A DNA stretch of 48,385 bases from Solirubrobacterales bacterium (GTDB lineage: Bacteria; Actinomycetota; Thermoleophilia; Solirubrobacterales; 70-9): NCBI GenBank assembly GCA_018883025.1, contig VEQW01000001.1, positions 1-48,385 on the forward strand. The letters run 5' to 3'. Positions 4,063 through 36,196 of the stretch are shown here, in pieces. The position numbers were made by a program, and so were the translations under genes. Every line of letters starts with the position of its first letter. Positions within the stretch are counted from its first letter, which is position 1. The notes beneath the pieces are model-generated. The model ran no database searches. It was not told the DNA's origin and saw only the letters and a program-made list of their open reading frames with translations.

Positions 4063-4074
4063 GCGGCCCGATAC

Positions 4075-5067
4075 TCAGGTCCCTTCGGACCTCTTCAGCC
4101 TCTCGACCGCAGCCGAGAGTTCCTCGACCCCGAAGGCCCCCTCGAGCCTCTGCTGGATCCGACCATCGGAGCCGATCAGGAAGACCCACGGCTCGGTCGG
4201 TAGCCCGAAGGCCTGGACCTGCGGCCTGAAGCCCTTGCCGGGATCGTTGTCCTCGTAGATCTCCATGTGGATGAACTCGACCCCGTCACCGACCTCGTCC
4301 TTGACCTGCTCGGTCGCATCGACGACAGGGCCACAGACCCGGCTCTGGCAGAAAGCCGGGGTTGCGAAGACCAGCACCACCGGCTTCTTCCCAACCACGT
4401 CCTGGAAGTCTGTCCCGTGGAGGGTCGAGGGTGGCTGACGAGTGTCGATCTTCGAGAGGTCACCGCCCACAGAATCGGCGGTCGGGGTACTGATCACCGG
4501 GGCCTTCGAGCCGACTGCAGCTACAAGCGGGAACTTGCCGACCACCGGACTCGGCAGGCGGGTCGCCTGGGGGCCATCGTCGGCGTTGACGATCGCGATC
4601 GCGAGCCAGGGTCCGGAGCGGTCGAACTCGACACCGTCCACCCGGTAATAGGAGCGCGGCTCACCGGGGGCCCCTGCACCCTTCGCCCGGTAGGCCGGTT
4701 TGGTCTCGAGCGATCCGACCGTCGCCGGCAGCGGACCCTGGACCGGGCTGTTGGGACTCTTTGCGAAGTAGAGCGCGACCTCGGCGTCGTCGACGGGAGT
4801 ACCGTCGAGCTCGAAGACCCCGAATGCGTAGCGGTTGGTCCCCCGCTCGAAGGTGAGTCCGGCCGGCGAGACCACGTACTTGCTCTCCGGCTCCGAGGCG
4901 AAGACCTCCTCGATCGTCCTGCCCTCTACCTTGGGAAAGTCCGAAGCCGGGGGGGTCGAAGAGGTCGAGACCCCGTCGTCGGACCCCGCGCAGGCCGCGA
5001 GGAACACCGAACCAAGGACAGCAAGGGCGACGAGCCCGGCCCGGATATTCGCCTTCGGATGCGGCAT
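4075..5067 (-). CDS. Lipoprotein with C-terminal thioredoxin-fold (TlpA/Sco-like) domain
   Basis: Lipobox signal MPHPKANIRAGLVALAVLGSVFLAAC. C-terminal KPVVLVFATPAFCQSRVCGPVVD (C-x4-C in a thioredoxin-like beta-alpha context). Ends with ...PWVFLIGSDGRI, typical of redoxin folds. Confidence 0.65.
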   Translation of the reverse strand: MPHPKANIRAGLVALAVLGSVFLAACAGSDDGVSTSSTPPASDFPKVEGRTIEEVFASEPESKYVVSPAGLTFERGTNRYAFGVFELDGTPVDDAEVALYFAKSPNSPVQGPLPATVGSLETKPAYRAKGAGAPGEPRSYYRVDGVEFDRSGPWLAIAIVNADDGPQATRLPSPVVGKFPLVAAVGSKAPVISTPTADSVGGDLSKIDTRQPPSTLHGTDFQDVVGKKPVVLVFATPAFCQSRVCGPVVDATEQVKDEVGDGVEFIHMEIYEDNDPGKGFRPQVQAFGLPTEPWVFLIGSDGRIQQRLEGAFGVEELSAAVERLKRSEGT

Positions 5068-5132
5068 CGGGCAGTCAGGCTACCGAAGCAGCCATTCGGC
5101 CCTGCCGGGCTGTTTCGGTGTCGCCCCCGGCT

Positions 5133-5741
<609 letters not shown>

Positions 5742-5905
5742 CTCTGGATCACTCCTTCGTTCGTTTGGGAAAGCCTCTGTCCGGAGATCGTCCGGGACCG
5801 TCAGGTTACCGGCCCTGCGGTCCTCGGACCGGCCCGGGCAGGCGCCTCCGAGGGCATCCGGGACTAGGATCGGGTCGTGTCCGCTTTCCGGTGGGAGCCA
5901 GAGAG

Positions 5906-6985
5906 GTGAAGGTCGTCTGCGCGACCGACTCACCGACCTGGCGCCTGCTGCTGGAGCGTTCGGTCGAAGCGCTCGGCCACGAGCCCGTCCTAGCCGAGGA
6001 CGGCGAGCAGGCCTGGGGTCTGATCGAGGCCGATCCCGAGATCGACGTCTGCGTGACCGACCGCCAGATGCCCGGGATGGGTGGCGAGGAGCTGGTCGAG
6101 AAGATCCGGAAGGAGCTCGAGGGGCGCTACGTCTACACCGTCCTCCTGACCGCCCAGGACACCTCCGAGGAGGTGATCGAGGGGATGGAGGCAGGTGCCG
6201 ACGACTACCTGGTCAAGCCGCTCGACCAGGTGGCCCTGGCGACCAGGCTGGTCGCGGCGGAGCGGGTGACCGCGCTCCATCGGACGATCGCCGAGCAGCG
6301 GGTCGAGATCGAGCGGCTCTATGGCAAGCTCGCCGACGCCTTCAAACGGTTCGTGCCCGAGTCCGTCGCCGAGCAGATCATCACCCGGAGCGACGAAGGC
6401 GTGAAGCTGGGCGGAGTCTCCCGGGTCGCAACCGTCATGTTCACCGACCTCCGGGGCTTCACCCAGTTCTCCGAGCATCAGGGTCCCGAGCAGGTGATCG
6501 AGGTCGTCAACCGTTACCTGGGCGAGATGTCCGAGGCGATCCTCAACGAGGAGGGCACGGTCGTCGCTTACATGGGCGACGGGATCATGGCGGTATTCGG
6601 AGCTCCGCTCGAACAGGATGATCACGCCGACCGGGCCCTCCGGGCGGCCAGGGCGATGCTGGACGTCCACCTGCCGAGATTCTCGGACTGGATGGAGGGG
6701 CAGGGGCTCGGTGAAGGCTTCCGCATGGGGATCGGCCTGAACTCCGGGGAGGTCGTCTCGGGGAACGTCGGCTCGGAGCGGCGGCTCGAGTACACCGCCC
6801 TTGGCGACACGACCAACACTGCGGCGAGGCTGGAAGGAATGACCAAGGGAACGCCCCACCAGCTCTACTGCTCGGAGACCACGAAGGAGATGCTGCTGGA
6901 CCCGCCCGATGACCTCGTCTTCGTCGACGAAGTCGACATCCGGGGCAGGGACCAGCCGCTCGGCGTCTGGTCGTTCGCGGAGTAG
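5906..6985 (+). CDS. Response-regulator receiver fused to a class III adenylate/guanylate cyclase catalytic domain
   Basis: REC domain: [10 protein letters not shown]...[18 protein letters not shown]...VLLTAQD...DYLVKP (acidic pocket, phospho-Asp, Thr and Lys all present). Cyclase domain: [64 protein letters not shown] place the start at in-frame GTG 5906. The tracked ORF starts at TTG 5765. Confidence 0.85.
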
Positions 6986-7026
6986 GCCCTGGAGGGCCGG
7001 TGGCCGGCGAGGTACCCGATCACGGA

Positions 7027-7032
7027 TAGAGT
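7027..7032 (+). promoter_or_regulatory. Candidate -10 hexamer (TAGAGT) 8 nt upstream of the MCP ATG; possible leaderless or short-leader transcript
   Basis: Sequence ggaTAGAGTaagtaggcATG. It matches the TAnnnT consensus. No convincing Shine-Dalgarno motif at proper spacing and no clear -35. This is a pattern match only. Confidence 0.2.
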
Positions 7033-7040
7033 AAGTAGGC

Positions 7041-9020
7041 ATGTTCCGCCTGCCGGGAACCGAGCCGGACGAAGTCGATCGGGGGTCGGAGGGAGCCCCT
7101 CCCGCCCCGCGACGGAGCCGCCTGCTTTCCTCGCCGGGAAGGCTGCCGGCCCTGCTGATCGCCCTGGCGGTCATCCCGACCGCGGTGGTCTCGGTCTTCA
7201 CCTTCATCAGGGCGAGCGACCTGATCCAGACGGGTATCGGCGAGGATCTGAGCGCCTCCGCCTCCTTCCTCGCGATCTTTACGGAACAGGACCTGGTCAA
7301 CCTGTCAAACCAGGCCCAGTCGCTTGCGGCCGAGCGAGCGATGCGTGACCTCAATCCCGTGGATGCCACCGGGAACCTGACCCGCGAGCTCATCGCCTTC
7401 GCACCCAACTATCGCCAGGCGATCCTGGTAGACACCACCGGTCGGGTGGTCGCCGCGGCGACGAAGCCTCCCGGCGCGAGGGGACCCATCTCCCCCGCGA
7501 CATTCACCGGTGTCGACGTCAGTTCGGAGACCTGGTTCAAGGACGCCCTGGTCAACAACAGTGGTGGGGACTCCGGAGTGATCCTGGAAGGGGTGGAGAA
7601 CCGACGGGTGATCGGCGAGGTCGAGGGCAGCGATGCCGCCCCACCCGCTCCTGTTGCGGCTGCGACGGTGCGGAAGGATCGGACCATCGTCGGGGTCCTG
7701 GCCCTCTTCCCGAACTGGCCGGTCACCGCCAGATACCTGGCCGCAGGAATCAAGGAGCAGGCAAGGCGAACCGACGCGAAGGAGGTAATCGGCCTGCTCA
7801 CCGATGAACAGGGACGAGTGCTCGTGGGTGCCGACGGAAAAGTCGACCTGAACACGGATTTCAGAGGCGACAAGGTCCTCCAGGAGGCACTGGCCTCGCC
7901 GGGCAACGGCTGGACCGAGGCCTACGACGATCCGGCCGATGGGGGGTATCTCTCGGGCGAGACCATTTACGGGTTCGACCATCTCAAGGACGTTGGCGGA
8001 TCGGACTTCGACTGGATCTGGATCGTGGCCCAGGAGAAGAGCGTTGCGATGGCCGACACCTCGGGACTCAGGCTGAGGCTGATCCTGGGTTCGATCCTGA
8101 TCCTGCTTGCGGCCGCGCTGATCGCCCTGTTCGTGGGCAGGGCACTTACCCGGAGGGCGCGGGAGTTGCGGGCCACCGCGGACGAGGTCGCGGAGGGCGC
8201 CTCGATCATGAAGGCAAGCGCCGAGAAGGGCAGAACCCGCGCCCAGCGGACCGAGGAGCTCGCCTCCCAGCAGGTCGAAGGCATGGAGCGAATGCGCGAA
8301 CAGGTCGAGGAGATGCGGAGGACCGGTGGTCGGATCGGCGAGAGTGCCCGGCTGGTCGCAGAGCAGGCGGGCAAGGCCGCAGAGGCCGGCGAAGGTGGAC
8401 GCAGGGCCGCAGAGGAGGTCGACCGGGCGATGGTCGGAATAGAGCAGAGGGTCCGCGCACTCGAGGGGGAGATCGGTGCGCTTGCCACCCAGACCGACCA
8501 GATCGGGGAGATCGTCTCGACCGTTTCCGGGATCGCCGACCAGTCGAACCTGCTCGCCTTCAACGCGACCATCGAGGCGGCCAAGGCCGGGGAGCAGGGT
8601 GCCGGGTTCGCCGTTGTCGCCGAAGAGGTAAGGACCCTGGCCGAGCGCTCGAAACGTGCGACCGCCCAGATCCAGGCGATCCTGAACGAAATCGAGAAGG
8701 CAACCAGGACTGCCGAGCGCTCGGCGCACGAGGGTCTCGATGCCGTGGTCAGCGGGCGGGAAAGGGCTGCGAGTGCAGCCAGGACGATCGATGAGCTGGC
8801 CGAGGCCAACCGGGAGGCCGAGCGCACGACCCGGGAGATCGCCGACTTCGTTCCCAGCCAGTCGGAGGCGAGCGACGTGGTGCTGGAGGTCGCGGAGGAA
8901 TCGGTCGAGAGGGCAGCCGAGGTCCGTGGCGAAGCCCACCATTCCTCGAACTCGACCGCCGAACTCGACCGTCTGGCGGAGCGGCTGCGGGAGCTGGCCT
9001 CCACCCTGACCACGGACTGA
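7041..9020 (+). CDS. Methyl-accepting chemotaxis protein with a large extracytoplasmic (Cache-like) sensor domain
   Basis: Two hydrophobic segments ([22 protein letters not shown] and [22 protein letters not shown]) bracket a sensor region of roughly 285 aa. The highly conserved MCP hairpin tip is present: [40 protein letters not shown]. Confidence 0.9.
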
Positions 9021-9027: not shown

Positions 9028-9444
9028 ATGGACGAGAGCCCGGGCCTGATCGAGCTGACCGGTGGCGAGAAGGCCCTGGACCAGGCGAGCCTGATCCGCC
9101 TCGTCGAAAGCCCGGAAGTGGCCCCGATCCCGAACCCCGACGGAGCCTGGGTCGGGGTGGCCAACCTTCGGGGCGAGGTGATCCCGGTGACCGACCTCGG
9201 AATCCTGTCCGGTTCCGGTCCGGTCGAACGGCCGGTGATGATCGCGCTCCGGACTGGAGGGCGATCCTTCGGCCTGCTGGTCGAGGGGGTCGAGCGGACG
9301 GTCGAGGCCTCCGGGGAGGGGGACCTCCCCGACGAGCCCGAGCCGGGCGACCCACCCTGGTTGCTCCCAGCCCCTCCCGGCAGTCCCCGGGTCATCGACC
9401 CCGAACTCCTGCTTGAGGATCCCCGGCTCGGTTCCGGCACATGA
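9028..9444 (+). CDS. cheW: CheW-like coupling protein
   Basis: 138 aa with the CheW-domain pattern ...VAPIPNPDGAWVGVANLRGEVIPVTDLG...VMIALRTGGRSFGLLVEGV. It starts 7 nt after the MCP stop and overlaps the cheA start by 4 nt (ATGA). Confidence 0.85.
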   Translation: MDESPGLIELTGGEKALDQASLIRLVESPEVAPIPNPDGAWVGVANLRGEVIPVTDLGILSGSGPVERPVMIALRTGGRSFGLLVEGVERTVEASGEGDLPDEPEPGDPPWLLPAPPGSPRVIDPELLLEDPRLGSGT

Positions 9445-11576
9445 GCCGCGCCTTCCGTCCCGACGACGAGCTCAGGGGGGAGCTGCTCTCGCTCTTCGCC
9501 GGTGAGGCGCGGGACGAACTCGACACGATCTCCTCCGGGCTGGTCTCTCTCGAGTCGGGCGGAGAGGACGCCATCTCCTCGGGAAGGTTCGACGAGATGA
9601 TGCGGGCTGCCCACAGCCTCAAGGGCGGTGCAAGGGCGGTCGAGCTCGATCCGGTCGACCGGATCGCCCACGCCCTCGAGGGACTGATGAAGGCGGCGGC
9701 AGAAGGAGGCGGATTCGGAGTCGACACCGTCGATCTCGCCTACCGCGCCCTGGATGCGATCGAAGTGATCATCGAGGCCGCAACCGGGGGACCGCCCACC
9801 GAGGTAAACGTGACTGCGATCTGTGACGAGCTGACGGCGGCCGCAGGAGGTGACGGCGGTGGAGGTGCGCGAGAGCAAGGTCCAACTGAGCGACCCGGGG
9901 ACCGTCCCGAACCCGAGAGGACCGCTCCGGGCACCGCGCCTGAAACGAAAGCCGAAGATCCGGGCGGGCCTGTCGATGCCCCGACCACTCCACTGGCCGA
10001 GACGACGGTCCGGGTCAATGTCGCCAAGCTGGATCGCTTGATGGCATCGGTCCGCGAGCTCGAGACCGCCCGGGTCGGGGTCGAATACGCCACCTCCCAG
10101 CTGGAGGAAGTCGCCGAGCGGGAGGACATCGAGACCCGCCAGTACGACCGGCGCTCGGGGGCGATCAGGGATGCCACTGCCGGACCGCTGACCCAACTGG
10201 AGAGGGCCGCGAGAGAGGTCGCCGAGGAAGTTGCCGAGGCCCGGACCGTCCCGCTCTCCCTCGCCTTCGATCCCCTTCCACGAACCGTCCGTGAACTCGG
10301 TCGTGACCTCGGTCGGAAGGCGAGCATCGAGGTCTCGGGAGGCGAGATCGACGTCGACCGCTCGGTGATGGAGGTCCTGAGGCCCGCACTCGTCCATGTG
10401 ATCCGGAACGCGATGGACCACGGGATCGAGCCACCGGCGGTCAGGACCGCGGCCGGGAAGTCCGAGGAGGGCCGGATCACCGTCAGGGCCCGGTCGGGGG
10501 GAGGTCGACTCGAGGTCGAGGTGACCGACGACGGGGCCGGACTAGATGTCGAGGCGATCAAGCGAAAGGCGATCGATGCCGGCCTGATCTCGGCCGCGGA
10601 GGCGGATGCACTCTCCGAGGACGAGGTAGCCGCGCTGCTGACCAGGCCCGGTTTCTCGACCCGTGAGTCTGCCGGGGAGATCTCCGGGCGTGGAGTCGGG
10701 CTGGACGCGGTACAGGAGGGCCTCGCATCGATCCAGGGAAGTCTCGAGATCGTCGGAATCAGGGGGTCGGGAACGATGGTCACGATGAGCGCCCCCCTGG
10801 CGATCGCCGCGACCGAGGTACTGGTGGCGCGCCTCGGCGGGCACCCGGTCGGGTTTCCCCTGATCGAGACCGACCAGGTACTGGAGCTCGAGGACCCCGA
10901 AGCCGCCGAGGTTGAACTGAGCGGCTTGATCGTCCCGCTTTCGAGTCGCGAGACGATCGGCGGGCTGGCACCGGACGTCGCTATCGAGCCCCGCTACGCC
11001 GTAGTCGTCCGCTCCTCTGGCCGACGGATCGCCTTTCCGGTGGAAGAGCTGGTCGGGGTGACCCGGTTGAACACGATGCCCCTGCCGGACCTGCTGCCCC
11101 CGATCGACCTGTTCAAGTCGGTCGCGATCCTCCCTGACGGCAGCGTGCTACGGGTGCTGGAGCCACCCGCTCTGATCGAGGACCTTCCCCCGGCCCCCCG
11201 GCTCCTGGTCGTCGACGACTCGGCCGCGTGGCTGGAAAAGAGCAGGGAGTGGTTCACCCGGGCCGGCTGGGATGTAGGGACGGCAACCAACGGGCGGGAC
11301 GCCCTGTCGATGTTGTCGGAGGACTCCTTCTCCGCCCTGCTCACCGATCTCGAGATGCCCGATGTAGACGGCATCGAGCTGACCAGGACCGTCCGCGCCG
11401 GCGGGGCCGGAAGGGCCGATATCCCGGTGGTCGTCTGGTCTGCCTCGGCCGATGGGGAGGCCGGACCGACGGCGCTGGGGGCGGGGGCCGATGCCTTCCT
11501 GGCCAAGGAGGCCGGGAATGAAGCGGGCGCGCTGGAGGCGATCAACGGGGCGCTGGAGCAGCGACCAGCGACCTGA
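9441..11576 (+). CDS. cheA: Hybrid CheA histidine kinase (Hpt-dimerisation-HATPase-CheW-like-REC)
   Basis: P1 Hpt motif MRAAHSLKGGARAV. P3 segment VRVNVAKLDRLMASVRELE. N-box HVIRNAMDHGIE, G1 DDGAGLD, G2 GRGVGLDAV. P5 segment VLVARLGGHPVGFPL. C-terminal receiver RLLVVDDSAAW...LLTDLEMPDVDGIEL...VVVWSAS. A Pro/Gly/Glu-rich linker sits where P2 would be. Confidence 0.9.
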   Translation: MSRAFRPDDELRGELLSLFAGEARDELDTISSGLVSLESGGEDAISSGRFDEMMRAAHSLKGGARAVELDPVDRIAHALEGLMKAAAEGGGFGVDTVDLAYRALDAIEVIIEAATGGPPTEVNVTAICDELTAAAGGDGGGGAREQGPTERPGDRPEPERTAPGTAPETKAEDPGGPVDAPTTPLAETTVRVNVAKLDRLMASVRELETARVGVEYATSQLEEVAEREDIETRQYDRRSGAIRDATAGPLTQLERAAREVAEEVAEARTVPLSLAFDPLPRTVRELGRDLGRKASIEVSGGEIDVDRSVMEVLRPALVHVIRNAMDHGIEPPAVRTAAGKSEEGRITVRARSGGGRLEVEVTDDGAGLDVEAIKRKAIDAGLISAAEADALSEDEVAALLTRPGFSTRESAGEISGRGVGLDAVQEGLASIQGSLEIVGIRGSGTMVTMSAPLAIAATEVLVARLGGHPVGFPLIETDQVLELEDPEAAEVELSGLIVPLSSRETIGGLAPDVAIEPRYAVVVRSSGRRIAFPVEELVGVTRLNTMPLPDLLPPIDLFKSVAILPDGSVLRVLEPPALIEDLPPAPRLLVVDDSAAWLEKSREWFTRAGWDVGTATNGRDALSMLSEDSFSALLTDLEMPDVDGIELTRTVRAGGAGRADIPVVVWSASADGEAGPTALGAGADAFLAKEAGNEAGALEAINGALEQRPAT

Positions 11577-13428
11577 TTTCCTCGAGGTGGGCCTCGCCTG
11601 CAGCCCGCCCGATCTCCACCGCCCGATCGAACGAGCCGAAGTCGAGCATCTTGAGGCGCGACACCTCCGGTTCGATCAGCAGGTCCGCCCGACCGGAAAC
11701 CCCCTCCCCCGCCGCAGCCGAACCGAGCAGTACCGACCGCAGCAGGGTCTCCCCGAGAAAGGGCAACGCCGGGTGTCCCTCCCGATCCAGGTCGGGCTCG
11801 AACCTCCCACCCACCTCGACTGCGACGACCGGGCCCTCATCCATGTCGGACATCACATCGACCGGCAGGTTCCTGATCAACCCGCCATCGACGAACAGGC
11901 GGCCGGCGTCCTGTCCCGGCGGCAGGAAGGCCGGGATCCGGGCGGTGTTCAGGGCTGCCTCGGCGACGAGCCCGGATCGCTGGACCACCATCTCCGCCTC
12001 GACCATGTCGGCGGCCACCGTGAACAGGTCGATCGGCAGCGTCTCGATCACCCGGTCGCCAAAGATCCGCTCCATCACCTGCTCCGCCCCATCGGTTCTC
12101 GATACGGCGCTCCTGGGGGGCACCTGGTACCGGTGACGGACCCTCCTACTGAAGATCGACTTGACCGCCCGGCGACGGGAGGGTGCGTCGAGTCCAACCG
12201 CAAAGGTCGAGGAGACGATCCCGCCCATGCTGGTACCGCCGATCCGGTCGACGAGTATCCCGTTCTCCTCCAGGACCTCGATCAGGCCGAGGTGGGCAAA
12301 GCCCCTGGCCCCACCGCCCCCGAGGACGAGGCCGAGCGAGGAGCCGGTGAGCCTTCGTGCGGCCCTTGCCAGATCGGCCCCCTGCGCCTCCCCTGCCTCG
12401 ATCCGATGACGGGACCGGGGCCGGAGAACTTCGATCCAGGCGGCTGCAACCTCGGCCGGGTACTCCGGACCGACGAAGATCAGGTCACAGCCCTGGAGCC
12501 TCGGCATCGGCTTCCTGGGCGGGGGCATCCGCGGCGGTGCCACACAGACCAGTCGGTCGGCCTGGCGCACGCAGAACCGCCGCCACTCTCCCTCATCCCG
12601 ATCGGCGACCAGGATCACCCGCTGGTTCTGCCGCTCGGACTCATCGAGAAGGTGACCCCAGGCAACCGGGTCACCAGACTCGGCAACCGACGGATCGAGA
12701 ACGGTGACCCCACCGAGATCGGCAAAGGCCCGCCTGACCCCATCGGCGATCGCGGCCACATCCATTCCGTCGAGAAGAGGGACGACCGCGAAGGTCTTGT
12801 GCTCGGGCAGGTCCTCCGGCAGCCCACCGCTTGCCTGGAGCTGCCGACCGAGGGTCGAGACGAGCGCCCTCGTGAAGGTCGGAACCGAGGTCATGAGCTC
12901 GCGAAACGCCTCGAACGACAGCCTCAGCAGGCTCGAGTCCCGGCTGGCCCTGACCGATGCCGAGCGAGGGTCCCCGGTGACCAGGGCGAGCTCCCCAACC
13001 GTCGCCCCCGGACCGAGTACACGGAGGATCTCGATTTCGTCGTCATCCCGGGATCCGTCCGGGCCTTCCCCGCGAACCACTTCGAGCCGCCCGGTCTCGA
13101 CCAGGTAGAGGGCGTCCCCCGGATCGCCCTTCCTGATCAGCCAGTCGCCTGCCTCGACGGCTACCCGTTCGAGGCGTTCCTCGACCTGGTCCCTCGCCTC
13201 GGCCGGAAGTGCACCGAACAACGGGCTCTCGGCGAGGATCCTCGCGACGCGATCATCTCCAGCCTCCACGGGGAGCGAGTCTACGGCGATATTCCGAAAT
13301 CCCCTGGATGACCCGGACCGGCTGAAACGGGCTCGGCTAGGCTTCACTGCCTTGCGACTCCGAGAGGAAACCCAGTGGACTTCCTGACCCAGGCGGACAC
13401 CGAGAAGCTCGGAGGAGCGATCAACCAC
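11542..13428 (-). CDS. Cyclic-nucleotide-binding domain + patatin-like phospholipase (NTE-family architecture)
   Basis: N-terminal CAP-type cNMP domain: PLFGALPAEARDQV...GDWLIRKGDPGDALYLVETGRLEV...GELALVTGDPRSASVRA (intact phosphate-binding cassette). Patatin motifs: LVLGGGGARGFAHLG (oxyanion hole), GGTSMGG (GxSxG) and FVDGGLIRNLP (catalytic Asp). Start uncertain: the maximal ORF start at 13428 overlaps the divergent gene. In-frame GTGs at 13347 and 13269 are alternatives. Confidence 0.85.
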   Translation of the reverse strand: MVDRSSELLGVRLGQEVHWVSSRSRKAVKPSRARFSRSGSSRGFRNIAVDSLPVEAGDDRVARILAESPLFGALPAEARDQVEERLERVAVEAGDWLIRKGDPGDALYLVETGRLEVVRGEGPDGSRDDDEIEILRVLGPGATVGELALVTGDPRSASVRASRDSSLLRLSFEAFRELMTSVPTFTRALVSTLGRQLQASGGLPEDLPEHKTFAVVPLLDGMDVAAIADGVRRAFADLGGVTVLDPSVAESGDPVAWGHLLDESERQNQRVILVADRDEGEWRRFCVRQADRLVCVAPPRMPPPRKPMPRLQGCDLIFVGPEYPAEVAAAWIEVLRPRSRHRIEAGEAQGADLARAARRLTGSSLGLVLGGGGARGFAHLGLIEVLEENGILVDRIGGTSMGGIVSSTFAVGLDAPSRRRAVKSIFSRRVRHRYQVPPRSAVSRTDGAEQVMERIFGDRVIETLPIDLFTVAADMVEAEMVVQRSGLVAEAALNTARIPAFLPPGQDAGRLFVDGGLIRNLPVDVMSDMDEGPVVAVEVGGRFEPDLDREGHPALPFLGETLLRSVLLGSAAAGEGVSGRADLLIEPEVSRLKMLDFGSFDRAVEIGRAAGEAHLEEIRSLVAAPAPR

Positions 13429-15177
13429 CTCGTGATCGGCCTCTGCCGGCTCGAGGAGAGGGCAGATGGCACCGTCCCCTCTTTCGAGGAGGTGAGGGAG
13501 CTGGTGGAGGAGCGTCTGGGGCGCTCACCGCGGTTCAGGCAGTTCCCGTACGCCCCGCCTGACCATGGCGGCCTTCCCGTCTGGGCCGATGCCCAGGACT
13601 TCGACCTCGACTACCACGTGGTCGAGGCAGAGACGGACGGCCCGGTCGATCGTCACCAGCTAGACGAACTGCTGGCCGAATGGATGACCACGCCGATCGA
13701 CGAGGAGCAGCCGCTCTGGCGGGTCCAGTACGTCCCTACCGAGGACGGCGCCGCACTGATGGTCAAGTCGAGCCACGCCCTTGCAGACGGACTGGGTTCG
13801 ATCGCCCTTTTCGCGATGCTGCTCTTCGACGTGACCGAGGAGCCGGTACGCGAGGACGCGGCCCCCTGGGAACCGGCCCCCTTGCCGGATGCCTCGGAGC
13901 TCAGGACGGCGGCAGGCCAGGCCGACTCGGATGAGGCCGAGGCCGACAAGACCCCCCTCGAAAAGGTGGTCTCCCTCATTTCGAGCCCCGAGGCGATCCG
14001 GCAGACCGCGACCGAAACGGCAGGGGTCAGCTCCTACCTGATCCGGAAGGCCCGGACCGAGGTCGCACCGAGTCCCCTGGCCCAGGGGTCCGGCATGCCG
14101 CTGGAACTGCACACCCTCGAATACCCACTCGATCGGCTCAAGCTGCTCGGTCGTGGCCTCGGGACCGGCGCGACGATGAACGACGTGATCCTCGGCCTGA
14201 CGGCCGGTGGCCTCCGCCGATGGTGCGTCGAGAACGGCTACCCACTGGAGGAGATCGCCGTGCGGGTCCCGGTCGCGACGAAGAAGAGGGAAGGTGAGGG
14301 TGAGGGCAACGCGAGCGTAGCCCCGATGATCGTGCCACTGCCCCTCGAGGAGGCGGACCCGGTCAGGCGGGTTCGCCTGCTCAGGGAGCGGACCGAGTCG
14401 ATCAAGAATGCCGGTCAGCCGGAGCTGAACCTGGCGGTCCGGAACCTGGCCAGGGAGGCCCCCGGTCCGGTCGGCGAGCGGATGTTGAACCTGGTCACCG
14501 GCAAGGGGCAGGCAAACATCGCGATCCACAACCTGCCCGGACCCCCCCTCAAGCTCTACGTTCTGGGGGCACCGACCGCCTCGTTCCACAGCTTCACACT
14601 GCCGCGGGCCGGCCTCGCGATCCACCTCAACGTCGTCTCGGTCGGCGGGGTAGTCTCGATCGGACTCGCGGCCGACCAGGGCGTCGCAGGGAGTCTCGCT
14701 CCGTTCGTTCGCGGCATCGAGGAGACGGAGGAGGCCCTCGCGAGCGGCGTGTCCTGCCTCGACCTCGTACGCCGGGTGCCGATCTTCGCACCGCTCGACG
14801 ATGAGATGCAGGAGGACCTCGCCTCCCGCATGGTCGAGCGAAGGGTCGAGGGTGGGGAGACCCTGGTCGCCCAGGGTGAGCCGGCTGAGGACTTCTTCCT
14901 GATCGTCGAAGGAGCCTTCGACACCCAGGTGGACGGCCAGTCGGTTCGGACGATGGGTCCGGGCGACTCGTTCGGGGAGATCGGCCTGCTCAGGGACACC
15001 GAACGAACGGCGACGGTAGAAGCGAAGGAAGCGGGAGTGGTGATGGTCTTGAGTCGCGAGGACTTCCTCGGTGCCGTCTCCGCCGACCCGGCAAGCATGG
15101 TCGTCGCCGACGCGATCATCAACACGAGGCTCGGCGATCTCGGGCGGTATCAGGTGTTCAGCGAGACAGCGGACTGA
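13375..15177 (+). CDS. WS/DGAT-family acyltransferase (wax ester synthase/diacylglycerol acyltransferase-like) with C-terminal cyclic-nucleotide-binding domain
   Basis: Active-site motif at the expected position (~aa 130): KSSHALADGLGS, a SHxxxDG variant of HHxxxDG. C-terminal-half WS/DGAT pattern: ANIAIHNLPGPPLKLYVLGA. The last ~135 aa form a CAP-type cNMP domain: RRVPIFAPLDDEMQEDL...GETLVAQGEPAEDFFLIVEG...FGEIGLLRDTERTATVEA. GTG start with GAGAGGAAA upstream. Confidence 0.8.
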   Translation: MDFLTQADTEKLGGAINHLVIGLCRLEERADGTVPSFEEVRELVEERLGRSPRFRQFPYAPPDHGGLPVWADAQDFDLDYHVVEAETDGPVDRHQLDELLAEWMTTPIDEEQPLWRVQYVPTEDGAALMVKSSHALADGLGSIALFAMLLFDVTEEPVREDAAPWEPAPLPDASELRTAAGQADSDEAEADKTPLEKVVSLISSPEAIRQTATETAGVSSYLIRKARTEVAPSPLAQGSGMPLELHTLEYPLDRLKLLGRGLGTGATMNDVILGLTAGGLRRWCVENGYPLEEIAVRVPVATKKREGEGEGNASVAPMIVPLPLEEADPVRRVRLLRERTESIKNAGQPELNLAVRNLAREAPGPVGERMLNLVTGKGQANIAIHNLPGPPLKLYVLGAPTASFHSFTLPRAGLAIHLNVVSVGGVVSIGLAADQGVAGSLAPFVRGIEETEEALASGVSCLDLVRRVPIFAPLDDEMQEDLASRMVERRVEGGETLVAQGEPAEDFFLIVEGAFDTQVDGQSVRTMGPGDSFGEIGLLRDTERTATVEAKEAGVVMVLSREDFLGAVSADPASMVVADAIINTRLGDLGRYQVFSETAD

Positions 15178-15189: not shown

Positions 15190-15990
15190 GTGGCAGCGCA
15201 ACCGACCGCCTGGCTCTGCTCCCACCCGAAGAGCGGCCGCACCTGGATGCGGTTCGCCCTCGTCCAGCTGCTCGATTCCCTCCACGGACTCGACGGCGGT
15301 TTCGACATGCTGAACATGTTCGGACTGATCCCCAACTCCGACGGTGAGGGGAAGACCCAGCCGACCAAGACCCCCGACAACTATCGCTACAGCGACCGGT
15401 CCGATGTCCCCTTCATCGTCATGAGCCACCTGCCCTGGGAGAGTTCCTTCTCCGAGCTTCCGGCGGTCTTCCTCGTGAGGAGCCCGGGTGATGTCCTCGT
15501 TTCCTACTACCACCACATGAACCGGCACGACGGAAGGTTCCAGGGGACCCTCGACGAGTTCGCCCGGGATCCGGAGTACGGAATCCCGAACATCGTCTCT
15601 TACCTGGCGTCCTGGGAGCCCCACCTGGACGATCCGAACCTGACCGTGGCCACCTACGAAAGGCTGAAGGCAGAACCGGTCGAGGAATTCGGGAAGCTCG
15701 TCTCCGGGCTCGGAATCGAGGCGGGTACCGCAGAGCTGCAGGCGGCCCTCGACGCGGCATCGGTAGAGCGGATGCGGGAAGTCGAGGCGAGGACAGGAGT
15801 CGGTCAGCCCCAGGCGTACGACTTCGGCGATCCGGACGCGAGGCGGGTCCGCAAGGCGAAGGTCGGAGGCTGGCGAGAGGAGATGGACGACGACACGATC
15901 GCACTGCTCCTGGCCGAGATCGAAGCCTCTCCCGAGGCGAGTCAGCTACTCGAGCGACTCGACCTCATGCCGGGGCCGGCCCCGGTCTGA
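15190..15990 (+). CDS. Sulfotransferase (Sulfotransfer_1-like, PAPS-dependent type)
   Basis: 5'-PSB loop LCSHPKSGRTWMRF. 3'-PB-like motif LVRSPGDVLVSYYHH. GTG start 12 nt after the WS/DGAT stop with GAGGGAAGGG upstream, so it is likely co-transcribed. Confidence 0.8.
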   Translation: MAAQPTAWLCSHPKSGRTWMRFALVQLLDSLHGLDGGFDMLNMFGLIPNSDGEGKTQPTKTPDNYRYSDRSDVPFIVMSHLPWESSFSELPAVFLVRSPGDVLVSYYHHMNRHDGRFQGTLDEFARDPEYGIPNIVSYLASWEPHLDDPNLTVATYERLKAEPVEEFGKLVSGLGIEAGTAELQAALDAASVERMREVEARTGVGQPQAYDFGDPDARRVRKAKVGGWREEMDDDTIALLLAEIEASPEASQLLERLDLMPGPAPV

Positions 15991-16722
15991 GGGCGACTGA
16001 CCGGGCGGGTCGTAGAGGGCCTCGTCGAAGGGCCGATCGAAGAACCAGTCCCGATCGTCCGTTCCCGTCTTCCGAAGGGCGGCCAGGTTCGTCTCACGCT
16101 CGACCTCGGCCGTCCGGCCCTCGATCCGCTCGTAGGCACGGTTGGACACCACGTAGCCCACGGCCTTCTGGATCGCCGGCATCCAGGTGTCGTGGAAGAC
16201 GATGACGCCACCCTCTTCGAGCATCCGATCCATGTAGAAGAAATCGATCAGGGCGTGGTCGAACAGGTGGAGTCCGTCGACGAAGGCGAGGTCCACCCGG
16301 GTTCCGTCAGCTGCCAACGCAGGAAGCGCCAGTTCGGAAGGCTCCTCGATCAGGGTGATGTATTCCCGCACGCCCGCCTTGTCGGCAAGGTCGAGTCCGG
16401 CCGACTTCCATTGGGCGGTCTGGTACGGATCGATGCAGGTATGGATCCCTTCCCCACGTCCGGCGTGCACCGAGGCGACCGCAACCGCTGAGTGGCCTGC
16501 GGCCATCCCGGTCTCGATCGTCCGACGGGCATCGAGCTCACGGGTCAATCGGGCAAGGAGCGCGGCGGTCTCTTCCTCGATCGGCGCATTCGAGGGCTTG
16601 CTGGCTATCACCCGATCCCGAGGTCCGAGCAGCGGCGCCTCGGGCTCATCCGGGGGCGCCTTGCGGTATTCGGCGACCAGTACTTCGGGAAGCTCGGAGG
16701 AACTGTCTGATTCGTTTGCCAT
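15946..16722 (-). CDS. Class I SAM-dependent methyltransferase (Methyltransf_24 / O-methyltransferase family 3-like)
   Basis: ...IHTCIDPYQTAQWKSAGLDLADKAGVREYITLIEEPSELALPALAADGTRVDLAFVDGLHLFDHALIDFFYMDRMLEEGGVIVFHD matches the core beta-strand order and the D-x-D / FIDG-like motif of this family. Recognised by eye only. Confidence 0.6.
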   Translation of the reverse strand: MANESDSSSELPEVLVAEYRKAPPDEPEAPLLGPRDRVIASKPSNAPIEEETAALLARLTRELDARRTIETGMAAGHSAVAVASVHAGRGEGIHTCIDPYQTAQWKSAGLDLADKAGVREYITLIEEPSELALPALAADGTRVDLAFVDGLHLFDHALIDFFYMDRMLEEGGVIVFHDTWMPAIQKAVGYVVSNRAYERIEGRTAEVERETNLAALRKTGTDDRDWFFDRPFDEALYDPPGQSPSDRGRPRHEVESLE

Positions 16723-16764: not shown

Positions 16765-18183
16765 TCAGGTCCCGGCCAGCGACTCCTTCTCGTCGACCCG
16801 CTCGACGTCGAGGCCCCCGCTTCCGGGACCCGGGTCCTTGAACATCCTCATCGCCCAGGCGGCCGCCAGCGCCAGGAGGATGATCGCGGCACCGATCAGT
16901 GCGGTCTCGGACATGCTGTCGGCGAAGACCTTCAGCCCTTCGGTCAACTCGGCCGCCGGCAGGGTCGAGGAGTCGGCCGGATGCTGGATCTGCTGGTAGA
17001 CCTTCTCCGCCTCGCCTGTGGCGTACTTCGCTCCGAGCGCACCGAGGATCAGGGCGTTGGTGATCGCACCGAGGATCATCGAGCCGACCACGTTCCCGGC
17101 CTGGGAGGCAACGGTCATGGTGCCCGAGATCATCCCCCTCTGCACTGGATCGGCATCGGCGATCGCGTGCACGTTGACCGGGGTGGTCGCGAGGTTCACG
17201 GCAATACCGAGGACGAACATCGGAACCACGATCAGGGCGTAGGACTCGACCGTCAGGGCGACCGCCACCAACCCGAGGCAGGCCGCAACGAGCAGGAAAC
17301 CGACGATCGTCGGGGGACGCCAGCCGATCTTGTCCTTGAGCCTGCCCGCCAGGAGGCCACCGATCGCGATGCCGAGGATTCCCGGGATCATCGCCAGGCC
17401 GGCCGTGAGCGGGGAGAAACCGAGGACGCTCTGGAAGTAGATCCCCGAGTAGATGAAGACCCAGATCAACGGCAGCCGAATCCAGAAGATCAGGAACAGG
17501 CCGGCACGGAGCGAGGGCCGTTTGAGCATCTCCATCGTGACCAGCCGCTTCTTGTTGCGATCGATCCCCTCCCCTGCCGCTCGCAGGAAGACGTGGTTGA
17601 GGATCAGGAGCGGAACGATGATGATCGGGTTGACCAGGAAGATCCACTCCCAGGCGACCAGGTCGACTATCGCCCCGCCCGCGAGGGGGCCAACGGCGAG
17701 CCCGACCGCACTGACCGCCGCGTAGACCCCGAAGGCGGTTCCGGTCTTCCCTTCCGGGGCGACCCGGGTGACCAGGGCCTGGATGCATGGCATGAGGATC
17801 GCGGCACCGACGCCCTGGACTACCCGGCCGCCGATGATCATCGGGGCGTCCGTGGCCAGACCGCACATCAGCGACCCGACACCGAATACCACCAGGCCGA
17901 TGTTCATTCCCCTCAGCTGGCCGATTCGGTCGCCGAGCATCCCGCCGGGGATCAGAAGGACGGTGAAGGCAATCAGGTAGGCGTTGACCACCCACTGGCC
18001 TTCGGAGGGAGTGAGCCCGAGGTCCTCCTCGACCGTTGGCAGGGCTACCGAGATGATCGTCAGGTCGATCGCCGTGACCAGGCTGGCCATCGCCAGTACG
18101 AAGATCGAGACCTTCCAGCCGCTTGCCGAGAGACCTGCGCCCTCTCCCTTGCCCCCTTCCGGGCCGGTTTCAGACGTAGCCAT
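16765..18183 (-). CDS. MFS transporter (DHA2 / EmrB-QacA-like, 14-TMS type)
   Basis: 472 aa and highly hydrophobic throughout. N-terminal MFS pattern FVLAMASLVTAIDLTIISVALPTVEEDLGL...WVVNAYLIAFTVLLIPGGMLGDRIGQ, which is motif A-like. Confidence 0.85.
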   Translation of the reverse strand: MATSETGPEGGKGEGAGLSASGWKVSIFVLAMASLVTAIDLTIISVALPTVEEDLGLTPSEGQWVVNAYLIAFTVLLIPGGMLGDRIGQLRGMNIGLVVFGVGSLMCGLATDAPMIIGGRVVQGVGAAILMPCIQALVTRVAPEGKTGTAFGVYAAVSAVGLAVGPLAGGAIVDLVAWEWIFLVNPIIIVPLLILNHVFLRAAGEGIDRNKKRLVTMEMLKRPSLRAGLFLIFWIRLPLIWVFIYSGIYFQSVLGFSPLTAGLAMIPGILGIAIGGLLAGRLKDKIGWRPPTIVGFLLVAACLGLVAVALTVESYALIVVPMFVLGIAVNLATTPVNVHAIADADPVQRGMISGTMTVASQAGNVVGSMILGAITNALILGALGAKYATGEAEKVYQQIQHPADSSTLPAAELTEGLKVFADSMSETALIGAAIILLALAAAWAMRMFKDPGPGSGGLDVERVDEKESLAGT

Positions 18184-19051
18184 TGGCGGTCAGCCTCTCC
18201 CCGAACACGGCCTCCATCGCTTCGACCTCTTTCCCGGTCATGTGGTCCCGCCAGGAGCCGGGCTTGGCGAACCTGATCTCCCGACCGCTCCCCTTCTCCG
18301 TCTCCGGAACGTTTCGGTGGGCCTCGGCCTCGACCATCGCGGCGACCAGCTTGGGATCCCGGTCGAGGTCCAGGACCGAGAGGATCCCCGGCACTACCGT
18401 CTCGGGATCGGCCAGCAGGTCCTCGTACCGGACCTTGAGCCGGCGGTCGGGATCATGGGCGTCATAGGCGGCCTGGACCGCCTCCGTCCGGTACTTCCAG
18501 ACCGCGGCCTGCCACCGGATGAACCCGATCCGGTCCTCCTGGGTCACCGCGTAGGCACCGTCGGTCGAGGCCCAGGTCCCTTCCCGATAGGCGTCGAGCC
18601 AGGAGTCGACGACGTCGCGACCGTCGCGGAGCAGGAAGACGAGCCTCGACCCGGGGGTTATCGAAATCAGGTCCGAGGCCATGTGGGAGCCGCCCGGCTC
18701 CTTTACGACGACCCGGGTCCGCGGGTTCCGCCAATCCGGTCGGTCCCCGTCGAGCTGGTGGACCAGACGGTCGTGGAAGAGCCGCTCGAGCCCGGACCTC
18801 CAGACCTCCTCGTACTCGCGGTTGAAGAAGTAGTCGCGGCGGTCCTCCTTGATCGCCTTGAAGGTGGTCAGTGGAGGTGGCTCCACCGACTGCCAGGCGA
18901 GGGCGATCGGCCGCCAGACGCCGAGATGGTGGCCCAGGCCGGTCTCGTTGATCCCGACGACGTCGGGATGGTGGCGAAGCATCCGGAGCAGCCAGGTGGA
19001 CCCGCTGCGGGATGAGCCAAAGATCCAGGTCAGGTCGGGGCGCTCCTCCAC
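18170..19051 (-). CDS. Sulfotransferase family protein (Stf0/Sulfotransfer_3-like)
   Basis: P-loop-like PAPS motif IFGSSRSGSTWLLRML. Second motif LVFLLRDGRDVVDSW. GTG start. The stop overlaps the MFS start by 14 nt. Confidence 0.75.
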   Translation of the reverse strand: MEERPDLTWIFGSSRSGSTWLLRMLRHHPDVVGINETGLGHHLGVWRPIALAWQSVEPPPLTTFKAIKEDRRDYFFNREYEEVWRSGLERLFHDRLVHQLDGDRPDWRNPRTRVVVKEPGGSHMASDLISITPGSRLVFLLRDGRDVVDSWLDAYREGTWASTDGAYAVTQEDRIGFIRWQAAVWKYRTEAVQAAYDAHDPDRRLKVRYEDLLADPETVVPGILSVLDLDRDPKLVAAMVEAEAHRNVPETEKGSGREIRFAKPGSWRDHMTGKEVEAMEAVFGERLTANGYV

Positions 19052-19259: not shown

Positions 19260-19997
19260 CTACCGGACGGCCTCGATCGCGGTGCGGACCCGTTCGAGTC
19301 CTGGCGAGTCCTGGAGCACCTCCGTGCCGGATGGCCCGGCAACCACCATCGCCGGTTCGGCCCGCAGCCCCAGGTCGATCGCGATCTTGTCGTACTCCTC
19401 CAGCCTCCGGGTCGTGGCACTGTCGGGCTCGATCCCCCGCTCGAAGTCCCTCTTCCAGATCGGCAGCTCCATGCGCTCGACCCCCTCGGCCAGGTCCGAA
19501 AGGAGCTCCTCGTCGATCCTTCCTGCTTCCTCGGCCAGGTCGAAGTTCCGGACCATCAGGTAGGCGAAGTTCCACCCTGCATCCTGGGCCGCTGCTGCCT
19601 CGACCCCGTAGAAACTGATCTGGGTCGGGTTCCGGGTCAGCGACCGATTCCTGAAGAGCATCTGGACATCACCATTCCGGACCTCGGTCTCGACCAGGTC
19701 CGGGACCACGGCAAGGAAGTTCTCCCTTCCCGGAATGCTCTGGACATCGGTGAAGTACTGGATCTGGACCGGGGCATCACCGAACCCGAGCCTGTCACCG
19801 AGCTGGCGGACTCCACCGAAGATCCGCTGGGCATCGGTCGTTCCCTCGACCCTCACGTACTCGTTCGATGGCTCCTTGGTCGCCAACCCGATGATCCCGA
19901 CCAGCAGGGCTCCTCCGGCGACGATCAGCGCGAGCAGGATCCAGAACCGGCCCGGCCGGGCTCCGGTCGGCGACTCCGTGCCCTGCTCCCCGTTCAC
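19260..19997 (-). CDS. Membrane-anchored DsbA/thioredoxin-like protein lacking the CxxC active site
   Basis: N-terminal TM anchor FWILLALIVAGGALLVGIIGL. GDAPVQIQYFTDVQSIPGRENF aligns with the DsbA-family G.adAPV.ivEFsDfqCPyCarF block, with SIPG in place of CPxC. The protein has no cysteine at all. Confidence 0.55.
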   Translation of the reverse strand: MNGEQGTESPTGARPGRFWILLALIVAGGALLVGIIGLATKEPSNEYVRVEGTTDAQRIFGGVRQLGDRLGFGDAPVQIQYFTDVQSIPGRENFLAVVPDLVETEVRNGDVQMLFRNRSLTRNPTQISFYGVEAAAAQDAGWNFAYLMVRNFDLAEEAGRIDEELLSDLAEGVERMELPIWKRDFERGIEPDSATTRRLEEYDKIAIDLGLRAEPAMVVAGPSGTEVLQDSPGLERVRTAIEAVR

Positions 19998-20328: not shown

Positions 20329-21093
20329 ATGGCGGAGCGCGATCGGATCATCTCCTTCTGCGACCAGCTTCTCGAGGTGGGGGAATCCGACGATTGGTGC
20401 CCCAACGGCCTGCAGGTCCCTGGGTCCCGGGAGGTGACCGGGGTCGCAACGGCAGTGTCGGCCCATCTGGAGTCGATCGAGGCTGCCATCCAGTCCGGGG
20501 CGGAGCTCCTGATCTGCCACCACGGCCTTTTCTGGGACTTCCACCCGAGCGCCCTGACCGAGCCGATGGCGGCGAGGCTGAAGGCAGCCCTGGAAGCCGA
20601 TCTCTCGATAGCCGCCTACCACCTGCCGCTCGACGCCAGCCCGGTGACCGGGAACAACGCCCTGCTCTGTCGGGAGCTCGGGGCCGAGCCCGAACCGGCC
20701 AGACTGGGAGAGGCCAAGGGGAGCTTCGTCGGGATGGTCGGCCGCTTTCCCGAGCCCCTGGCCCTGGCCGAGCTGATCGACCGGGTAAGCGCTGCGACCG
20801 GGGGCAGGGAACCCTTGACCTTCGATGCCGGGCCGGATCCGGTCGGCACGCTCGGAGTGGTCAGCGGTGCAGCTGCCTCTGCCGTCCACGAGGCAATCGC
20901 GCTCGGTCTGGATGCCTTCATCACCGGGGAGCCGGCCGAGCACGTGATGGCCGATGCAAGGGAAGGCGGGATAAACTTTCTCGCGGCCGGTCATTACGCG
21001 ACCGAGGTGCCCGGGATAAGGAATCTCGGGCTGCTGGTGGCCCAGGAGTTCGGGGTCGAGGAGGAGTTCATCGACATACCGAACCCGGTCTAG
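20329..21093 (+). CDS. Nif3-like dinuclear metal centre protein (YbgI / GTP cyclohydrolase I type 2 family)
   Basis: ...ESDDWCPNGLQVPGSREVTGVATAVSAHLESIEAAIQSGAELLICHHGLFW... and the C-terminal block FITGEPAEHVMADAREGGINFLAAGHYATE are typical NIF3 blocks. Confidence 0.85.
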   Translation: MAERDRIISFCDQLLEVGESDDWCPNGLQVPGSREVTGVATAVSAHLESIEAAIQSGAELLICHHGLFWDFHPSALTEPMAARLKAALEADLSIAAYHLPLDASPVTGNNALLCRELGAEPEPARLGEAKGSFVGMVGRFPEPLALAELIDRVSAATGGREPLTFDAGPDPVGTLGVVSGAAASAVHEAIALGLDAFITGEPAEHVMADAREGGINFLAAGHYATEVPGIRNLGLLVAQEFGVEEEFIDIPNPV

Positions 21094-21126
21094 AGGGGTC
21101 ACCGCCGCCCAGGGGGACTGGAAAAC

Positions 21127-22932: not shown

Positions 22933-22956
22933 GCCCGGCGGCCGGGTGCGCCCGGC

Positions 22957-24228: not shown

Positions 24229-24391
24229 CCCGCTCAGTATGCCAATCCGACGGGACGGGCGGAGGGAGGGGTAGCTCGTCTTCGAGGGGGGATGGGCGGC
24301 TCCGATCCAGCGAGGCGGTGGACGAAATCGATGCTTCGGGATTCGGCATCCAGAGCGGAACCCTGGCCTCCCGGCTAGATTCCGCGGGGCC

Positions 24392-29790: not shown

Positions 29791-29812
29791 CCGGTCGATC
29801 CCTGCTTCCAGA

Positions 29813-30772: not shown

Positions 30773-30850
30773 CTCTGGGTCTTGATCCTTCGTCTTTCTT
30801 TGTCAGGGTGGGCCTGTCGGCCCCTCTCGGTTAAGTCTTGGTTACTGGCC

Positions 30851-31249: not shown

Positions 31250-31281
31250 TCGCTCGATTCCTCCGGCTGCTCACGACCGCC

Positions 31282-31665: not shown

Positions 31666-31669
31666 CCGA

Positions 31670-31783: not shown

Positions 31784-31895
31784 CGATCCACAATCCTTTT
31801 GGAGAGATCTCCCGAGAGTCCCATTAGTCGGACTTCGGGCGCGAAGAACTGCCCCTGAGGGCGACCGGAAACAATAGCACGCAGGCCGAAAACGC

Positions 31896-32651: not shown

Positions 32652-32679
32652 CGACTGGTGCCGGCCCGGCCGGTCGGCC

Positions 32680-33354: not shown

Positions 33355-33355
33355 G

Positions 33356-36174: not shown

Positions 36175-36196
36175 TCAGTCACCGTAGCGGAGTCGC

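Follow-up and report, generated by a model that had tools for sequence, protein, structure and literature searches.

Here we describe a gene in which an acyltransferase of the wax ester synthase/diacylglycerol acyltransferase (WS/DGAT) family continues in frame into a C-terminal cyclic-nucleotide-binding (CNB) domain. It lies in a 48,385-nucleotide stretch of a Solirubrobacterales genome (positions 1 to 48,385 of contig VEQW01000001.1, assembly GCA_018883025.1), which we call the window. The fusion is an uncharacterised variant of both WS/DGAT enzymes and CNB-gated enzymes, and it is set in a conserved cluster of chemosensory, cyclase and lipid genes. On balance, we favour reading it as an active WS/DGAT-type acyltransferase with a CNB switch, placed in a Wsp-like chemosensory pathway and likely to make an exported complex lipid. 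We infer this gating from the anatomy of the protein and from its gene neighbourhood.

The fused acyltransferase and its predicted sensor domain

The fusion is a single open reading frame (ORF), the longest in its region, whose GTG start codon has GAGAGGAA 6 nt on its 5' side in the sequence as read. Its product has three Pfam domains, each scoring far above the gathering threshold (Table 1). A first-pass annotation made from the bare letters had proposed an in-frame WS/DGAT and cyclic nucleoside monophosphate (cNMP) binding fusion, and the uninterrupted frame bears this out—KSSHALADG, NLPGPPLKLYVLGA and FGEIGLLRDTERTAT were all found where it had placed them, and its span for the sensor domain (14758-15150, or aa 462-592) agrees with the domain that follows the linker helix in our structural model.

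We consider it a negligible chance that the fusion is an artefact in which a frameshift or a chimeric assembly made one gene of two neighbours. The frame is unbroken and its codon-position G+C is even; the third-position value (GC3) is 0.86 in the acyltransferase body, 0.85 at the junction and 0.84 in the cNMP part, in a window with a G+C content of 64-69%. The other two forward frames of 13375..15177 offered no separate gene. Because the same architecture also recurs in independent assemblies (about 46 clusters from four sources, 14 GTDB loci and eight distant clusters), both a frameshift and a chimera, a concern raised at first pass, are excluded.

As judged by profile scores, the fusion is a divergent WS/DGAT subfamily. 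It reaches 223 bits against the NCBIfam model TIGR02946, under the curated cut-off of 309.95, and for this reason NCBI labels its relatives merely as 'domain-containing protein'. Among other NCBIfam models, Pat matches the CNB part (E 1.7e-10) and PapA5 gives a weak match (E 9e-4).

Residue conservation was read from an alignment of 48 WS/DGATs, consisting of 15 clade members and 33 unfused relatives. W115, H134, D138, G139 and G278 are the sole invariant positions, and the PLW, ND (N269/D270) and NxPGP (N386, P388, G389) blocks are at least 90% conserved; because these family residues and blocks are kept, the acyltransferase looks catalytically competent. The clade motif is KS[S/G]HAxxDG: where HHxxxDG has its first His, all 15 members have Ser or Gly (Ser133 here). 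Of the 33 unfused relatives, 31 have His at this position, as do most distant fusions. The replacement of the first His by Ser, remarked on in the first-pass annotation, is thus confirmed as a trait of the clade. The catalytic His, Asp and Gly do not vary. SHxxxDG is not tied to the fusion: two unfused WS/DGATs (P0060 and P0064) likewise carry it, and the Ser substitution is therefore not a consequence of fusion.

In the sensor part, F533-G534-E535, E543-R544-T545-A546-T547-V548 and the linker LDLVRRVP are invariant in the clade, as is the C-terminal tail IINTRLGDLGRY save for one Asn-to-Ser change; this conservation of linker and tail argues for a functional coupling element. Fusions of only 23-31% identity still have G494, F507, G513, F533, G534 and R544 without exception, and the conservation of E535 and A546 stays at 90% or more over the whole range of 23 to 100% identity. 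By sequence, the nearest solved domains to the CNB part are those of PKG and PKA.

An AlphaFold2 model built from the 48-sequence alignment (mean predicted local distance difference test score 85; predicted template modelling score 0.80) places a two-lobed acyltransferase before a helix at aa 442-467, after which come the CNB domain, a beta-barrel, and, at aa 572-594, a long helix at the C-terminus. Its best Foldseek matches in the PDB are the WS/DGAT structures 6chj and 7nxg (E 1e-23 to 2e-21, probability 1.0, TM-score on target 0.74-0.77), with condensation domains of nonribosomal peptide synthetases ranking next; identity to the solved WS/DGATs is just 18-19% in these alignments. The CNB domain is probably an allosteric switch on an acyl-CoA-dependent O-acyltransferase body, to which it is joined by the long helix.

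Both acyltransferase Pfam domains are common to the fusion and to Acinetobacter baylyi AtfA/AbWSD1 (7nxg), Marinobacter Ma-WS/DGAT (6chj) and mycobacterial Tgs. With the solved enzymes the fusion shares the two-lobed condensation-domain fold, His-x3-Asp-Gly and the PLW, ND and NxPGP blocks; it differs in some 145 extra C-terminal residues that form the CNB domain, in the Ser or Gly at the first His, and in its setting within a signalling, sulfotransferase and exporter cluster. The WS/DGAT genes of Rhodococcus jostii RHA1 are scattered, outside operons with other genes of triacylglycerol (TAG) metabolism, an arrangement described as common in actinomycetes that accumulate TAG (PMC2667194).

The proposed gating has a parallel in MtPat/MsPat (Rv0998/MSMEG_5458), which, like the fusion, is an actinobacterial acyl-CoA-using transferase joined to a PKA-like CNB domain; cAMP binding frees MtPat from autoinhibition (PMC8556138). 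The Pat enzymes have a GNAT catalytic domain, an N-terminal sensor and a protein lysine substrate, whereas the fusion has a WS/DGAT body, a C-terminal sensor and, as predicted, a lipid hydroxyl substrate. Homology is confined to the CNB domain—the likeness is one of analogy, not of membership.

Relatives and spread of the architecture

Among 5.8 billion proteins searched, about 46 clusters (formed at 90% identity) consist of full-length proteins of 596-627 aa that are 67-100% identical to the fusion, all with PF03007, PF06974 and PF00027. These were drawn from ENA, NCBI, JGI and Logan assemblies, and the named ones are metagenome-assembled genomes (MAGs) of Solirubrobacterales; many records of this clade bear lake-derived sample names. 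Among GTDB species representatives, the fusion occurs at 14 loci in about 11 MAGs, two genomes having two copies. Their records bear the label Solirubrobacterales or Solirubrobacteraceae with three exceptions, namely L016 ('Actinomycetota bacterium') and L015 and L017, two contigs of a 'Bifidobacterium breve' MAG. The latter bin (GTDB CAMDLG01), with its two copies, evidently carries a wrong label or contamination.

A second paralogue type of 596 aa, with KSGHA in the motif (L015, L019), shares just the major facilitator superfamily (MFS) pump with the window genes. In L015 it sits between a ZIP transporter gene and EF-P, a setting unrelated to the window block; one MAG carries both paralogue types.

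In a HMMER search of 1.84 billion 50%-identity representatives, the whole clade falls into one cluster (P0043). Eight more full-length fusions of 590-622 aa were found among the best 150 matches, 23-31% identical, aligned end to end and confirmed with Pfam. Most have HHxxxD[G/A]; their clusters are small, with one to five members, and one fusion stands without any close relative. When one of them (P0105) was used as the query of the large protein search, the only matches were P0105 itself and two unfused WS/DGATs; a protein search with the alignment of distant fusions repeated the matches of the first search and missed even the distant fusions that made up the query.

A rough neighbour-joining tree of the acyltransferase bodies gave fusion monophyly in 0 of 100 bootstraps. 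The window clade stands apart from the other fusions and the unfused P0104 nests among fusions, with deep nodes unsupported. The best match to the fusion body outside the clade is an unfused protein (32% identity) and the next is a fusion (30%). From these searches and comparisons, the WS/DGAT-cNMP architecture is both rare and recurrent. The first-pass annotation had called it unusual, which is right as to rarity; however, it is not unique, as eight other 50%-identity clusters have it, mostly with the normal HH motif. Its remark that it knew of no characterised WS/DGAT with this fusion agrees with our literature search, in which full-text queries pairing WS/DGAT or patatin with cyclic-nucleotide binding found no account of it. 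Literature on cNMP and patatin in mycobacteria and on pathways from Che proteins to cyclases likewise gave no account of the fusion.

The distant fusions have neighbours of their own. Two (L022, L023) lie beside a gene for an MFS-cNMP fusion (880-2478 and 6130-7818, respectively) and genes for GT2 and GT4 glycosyltransferases; L025 lies beside a cNMP-C39-ABC exporter (3960-7172), L024 beside a second WS/DGAT-cNMP paralogue (10533-12299) together with GT8 and an epimerase, and L020 beside a HAD hydrolase and a sulfatase. Additionally, P0081, P0083 and P0086 are MFS-cNMP and MFS-cNMP-patatin proteins with CNB domains 35-46% identical to that of the fusion. The pairing of a cNMP-tagged lipid enzyme with a cNMP-tagged transporter was not met in the literature, though the searches were not aimed at it.

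The gene block and its proposed cyclic nucleotide signal

The fusion is flanked by a receiver-cyclase, a methyl-accepting chemoreceptor (MCP), CheW and a hybrid CheA, with a cNMP-binding patatin lipase divergent from it, and by two sulfotransferases and an MFS efflux transporter (Table 1). Synteny was followed with tblastn of the window proteins on 19 related loci. The order cyclase-MCP-CheW-CheA-lipase-fusion-sulfotransferase-MFS-second sulfotransferase is the same in L001-L005, L008-L013 and L017, L009 lacking the cyclase alone, at a contig end; the partial contigs L006, L014, L016 and L018 match this order over their reach. It persists where the fusion is as little as 67% identical and the MCP as little as 46%; across loci the MCP is 46-86% identical, and it is syntenic wherever the flank suffices. 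The cyclase is the best-conserved protein of the block, at 81-94% identity across loci.

Table 1. Features of the fusion and of the gene block around it, in window coordinates
Feature	Position	Strand	Residues or length	Evidence and remarks
WS/DGAT acyltransferase with C-terminal cNMP_binding (fusion)	13375..15177	+	600 aa	single ORF, longest in region
WS_DGAT_cat (PF03007)			aa 21-272	Pfam; E 8.8e-28; 98.2 bits, gathering score 23.6
WS_DGAT_C (PF06974)			aa 315-450	Pfam; E 1.1e-16; 61.6 bits, gathering score 20.7
cNMP_binding (PF00027)			aa 489-568	Pfam; E 1.8e-18; 66.7 bits, gathering score 27.5
Active-site block KSSHALADG	13765..13791	+	aa 131-139	SHxxxDG variant of HHxxxDG
NLPGPPLKLYVLGA block of WS/DGAT C-terminal domain	14530..14571	+		N386, P388, G389 and G398 at least 90% conserved across WS/DGATs
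Linker helix, acyltransferase to sensor domain	14698..14775	+	aa 442-467	long helix in model
CNB domain	14776..15156	+		holds cassette, conserved C-helix and tail IINTRLGDLGRYQVF
Phosphate-binding cassette FGEIGLLRDTERTAT	14971..15015	+		within CNB domain
Receiver-cyclase	5765..6985	+	Response_reg aa 50-161; Guanylate_cyc aa 222-398	Pfam
MCP with dCache_1 sensor	7041..9020	+		MCPsignal 4.5e-31; dCache_1 weak
CheW coupling protein	9028..9444	+		Pfam CheW 1.2e-13; syntenic
Hybrid CheA (Hpt, dimerisation, HATPase, CheW-like, C-terminal receiver)	9441..11576	+		Pfam; syntenic
cNMP_binding / NTE P-loop-like / patatin lipase	11542..13428	-		cNMP_binding 5.1e-21; Patatin 3.4e-26
Divergent intergenic region, lipase and fusion	13270..13374	.	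about 105 bp	
PAPS-type sulfotransferase	15190..15990	+		Sulfotransfer_1 5.7e-22; 12 nt past fusion stop
Class I S-adenosylmethionine-dependent methyltransferase (Methyltransf_24)	15946..16722	-		Pfam; in closer loci L006-L009 only
DHA2-type MFS efflux transporter	16765..18183	-		MFS_1 2.4e-56
Second sulfotransferase	18170..19051	-		Sulfotransfer_3 8.9e-22; syntenic

The lipase adjoins the fusion, in divergent orientation, in 16 of the 17 related loci with enough upstream sequence. Its true start is likely the GTG at 13269, which would give 575 aa as in L005; homologues at other loci are 571-575 aa long. Longest-ORF calls overlap at the divergent starts (13269-13428, 5765-5933). The NTE_Ploop match of the lipase (2.8e-4, 21.2 bits) is under the 27-bit gathering score, as is the dCache_1 match of the MCP (6.7e-07, 29.5 bits) under its 45-bit score. 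The lipase has the architecture of bacterial proteins of the cNMP-patatin/NTE-like kind. These proteins and the cNMP-fused MFS or ABC exporters are lipases or transporters, not acyltransferases, and we found no description that links any of them with a WS/DGAT.

On the other side, the first sulfotransferase, which uses 3'-phosphoadenosine 5'-phosphosulfate (PAPS), is a probable operon partner of the fusion; it is syntenic in nearly all loci, some of which have an extra copy upstream of the fusion. The MFS transporter scores 165 bits against TIGR00711, under the 230-bit cut-off. The outer flanks vary among loci, and insertions are an extra sulfotransferase or CysNC with CysD. The latter pair, in which CysNC joins a GTPase to an adenosine 5'-phosphosulfate (APS) kinase, lies between fusion and sulfotransferase in seven loci (L001-L004, L013, L016, L017), at 9818-12648 in L001. 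The lone methyltransferase of the block is of the Methyltransf_24 type, and the window genes scanned included no flagellar or pilus genes.

The true start of the cyclase is likely near 5906, for a protein of about 360 aa as in L001. Its best solved relatives are Cya2 (2w01) and CyaC (1wc0), and it keeps the phospho-acceptor Asp of the receiver, both metal Asp residues and the Asn/Arg pair. Where CyaC has the purine-specifying Lys (GTVDKFVGDA) and Cya2 has Glu, the cyclase has Ala, with Thr at the second specificity position; both residues are invariant in all clade loci. On the receptor side, the cassettes read R-T-A in the fusion and R-S-A in the lipase (cassette GELALVTGDPRSASV), and R-T-A is found in cGMP- as well as cAMP-binding domains. 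In CNB domains, base specificity is set by a lid residue (PMC11224242). The messenger cannot be named from sequence, because neither the Ala and Thr of the cyclase nor the receptor cassettes settle the base. The second-messenger gating proposed at first pass is therefore upheld in outline, since a cyclase and a second cNMP-binding lipid enzyme encoded nearby fit it, but cAMP is not to be assumed.

A CNB-like domain need not sense a nucleotide: many domains of this fold, CRP/FNR members included, bind other ligands or none, and the distant fusions have no nearby cyclase. The domain might then serve in dimerisation, membrane targeting or as a scaffold, with the acyltransferase constitutive. However, the ribose-phosphate contacts (F-G-E, and Arg followed by Thr/Ser-Ala) are kept at 23-31% identity, which is hard to explain without a ligand, and a cyclase with intact catalytic residues is encoded about 6.4 kb from the fusion in all clade loci with enough flank to show it. 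We regard a silent domain as improbable.

The same pairing of cyclase and CNB proteins brings to mind Pycsar, an anti-phage system in which a pyrimidine cyclase would here signal to a membrane-damaging patatin lipase. On the cyclase, which lacks the purine-specifying Lys, the PADLOC model for PycC (PDLC00734) reaches 91 bits; the two CNB domains each find matches among PycTIR and effector models, and the patatin among models of phospholipase effectors. These PADLOC matches, however, are at the level of domains and no stronger than those of generic Pfam models (86 and 67 bits). The context also differs: the cyclase has a receiver and belongs to an MCP-CheW-CheA operon; the block is fixed in the core chromosome, by SOD and about 10 kb from a ribosomal-protein operon; all clade genomes sampled contain it, which is not the way of defence islands; and an acyltransferase is no known abortive-infection effector. 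The locus does not have the Pycsar layout of a stand-alone pyrimidine cyclase with a CNB-TIR or CNB-transmembrane effector in a variable island. An anti-phage role is highly improbable, and Pycsar or CBASS identity was rejected, the homology being at domain level only and the context wrong.

Several features lie outside the block. Downstream, at 20329-24786, three genes encode NIF3, a FadD11-like fatty-acyl-CoA ligase (409 bits, under the cut-off) and another patatin lipase (609 aa), which has no cNMP domain. L007, L010 and L011 keep these three in synteny, and with them the lipid character of the locus may reach beyond the block. A ribosomal-protein and translation-factor operon occupies 29437-48330 on the minus strand (EF-G, EF-Tu, L4, L2, L5, SecY, adenylate kinase, methionine aminopeptidase, RpoA), which places the lipid-signalling block in the core chromosome. 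Two further minus-strand ORFs were noted: one at 440-2221 (593 aa) with no Pfam match and a faint beta-helix hint, and one at 19260-19997 (245 aa) with a weak match to a thioredoxin-like lipoprotein, syntenic with the block in several loci.

A proposed pathway and what it would mean

In the pathway that we favour, the dCache chemoreceptor would signal via CheW and the hybrid CheA kinase to the receiver-cyclase, which would make a 3',5'-cyclic mononucleotide instead of c-di-GMP. The nucleotide would bind the CNB domains of both lipase and acyltransferase and shift both activities together; in the fusion, the effect of binding would reach the catalytic lobes through the invariant linker helix, the C-terminal helix and the tail. 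The acylated product would be an exported, possibly sulfated, complex lipid and not storage triacylglycerol.

The first part of this pathway resembles those of the Wsp type, in which an MCP, CheW, a hybrid CheA and a receiver-enzyme output (e.g. WspR) are encoded in one cluster, as here. Chemosensory clusters of alternative cellular function have been listed as including receiver-mononucleotidyl-cyclase regulators (PMC3447774); literature on Che-to-cyclase pathways yielded no characterised receiver-cyclase regulator of a che cluster. In contrast to Wsp-type systems, the output at this locus is a class III cyclase, not GGDEF; CheR and CheB are absent, and the presumed messenger receptors, which are lipid enzymes, are adjacent.

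As for the product, the first-pass annotation had named storage- or complex-lipid synthesis; the neighbours (sulfotransferases, PAPS genes, the MFS transporter and, in distant relatives, glycosyltransferases and cNMP-fused exporters) point to an exported complex lipid and not to storage triacylglycerol or wax. An alternative pathway would have the fusion as a cAMP-gated storage synthase for triacylglycerol or wax ester, opposed by the cAMP-gated patatin, so that the pair switches between storage and mobilisation. Family membership and fold are those of WS/DGAT; lipase and synthase, each with a CNB domain, diverge from a common 105-bp region; the FadD11-like ligase and second patatin lie 6-9 kb downstream, syntenic in three loci; and in mycobacteria fatty-acid metabolism is known to be under the control of cAMP (PMC8556138). 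Against this, the partners kept most tightly are sulfotransferases and an MFS pump of the efflux type, whereas storage lipids are intracellular and unsulfated; distant fusions are accompanied by glycosyltransferases and exporters; the protein scores under the curated WS/DGAT cut-off, with an altered motif; and the nucleotide may be other than cAMP. We consider a storage switch rather unlikely. A sulfotransferase in the probable operon, genes for PAPS synthesis and an efflux pump that stays linked to the fusion make an exported, possibly sulfated acyl-lipid the likelier product.

The logic of such a product is familiar from the mycobacterial sulfolipid-1 pathway, which combines a sulfotransferase, HHxxxDG-type PapA acyltransferases and a lipid exporter. 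Like that pathway, the locus has PAPS-dependent sulfotransferases, a condensation-superfamily acyltransferase and an exporter. It differs in having no polyketide synthase, MmpL or Stf0-type sulfotransferase, its own sulfotransferases being of PF00685/PF13469, and the link is one of neighbourhood only.

A number of points weigh against an exported lipid made under chemosensory control. What speaks for a sulfolipid is gene neighbourhood alone, and classical WS/DGAT substrates are not to be assumed for a protein that scores under the TIGR02946 cut-off and has lost the first His. The AlphaFold model is uninformative on communication between the domains. With Ala in place of Lys, the activity of the cyclase could be unusual or weak. 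Neither the window block nor the sister loci contain CheR or CheB. No cyclase or Che genes lie near the distant fusions, so the Che link is specific to the Solirubrobacterales clade. That clade is narrow, a single 50%-identity cluster of uncultured Solirubrobacterales, and its synteny may in part be inherited gene order. The entire circuit—from a dCache ligand through CheW/CheA and a cyclase without the purine Lys, possibly making a non-canonical cNMP, to lipase and acyltransferase and on to an exported sulfated lipid—is offered tentatively, as a possibility that we would not back in full. It is a similarly tentative suggestion that an entire chemoreceptor-to-lipid circuit of this kind is previously undescribed.

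We know of no allosterically regulated WS/DGAT; the known control of these enzymes is at the level of expression. If our reading is true, a nucleotide-sensing WS/DGAT would be the first case of direct second-messenger control in the enzyme family, and would extend the example of MtPat, the one well-studied bacterial cAMP-gated acyltransferase, to lipid synthesis. A wax ester or triacylglycerol synthase scaffold that can be switched by a ligand would be useful for biotechnology. Additionally, with the sensor, kinase, cyclase and both presumed receptors encoded together, the locus provides a compact, testable model of chemosensory signalling with a mononucleotide output. If the pathway holds, chemoreceptor arrays would control envelope- or secreted-lipid chemistry in abundant uncultured freshwater Actinomycetota.

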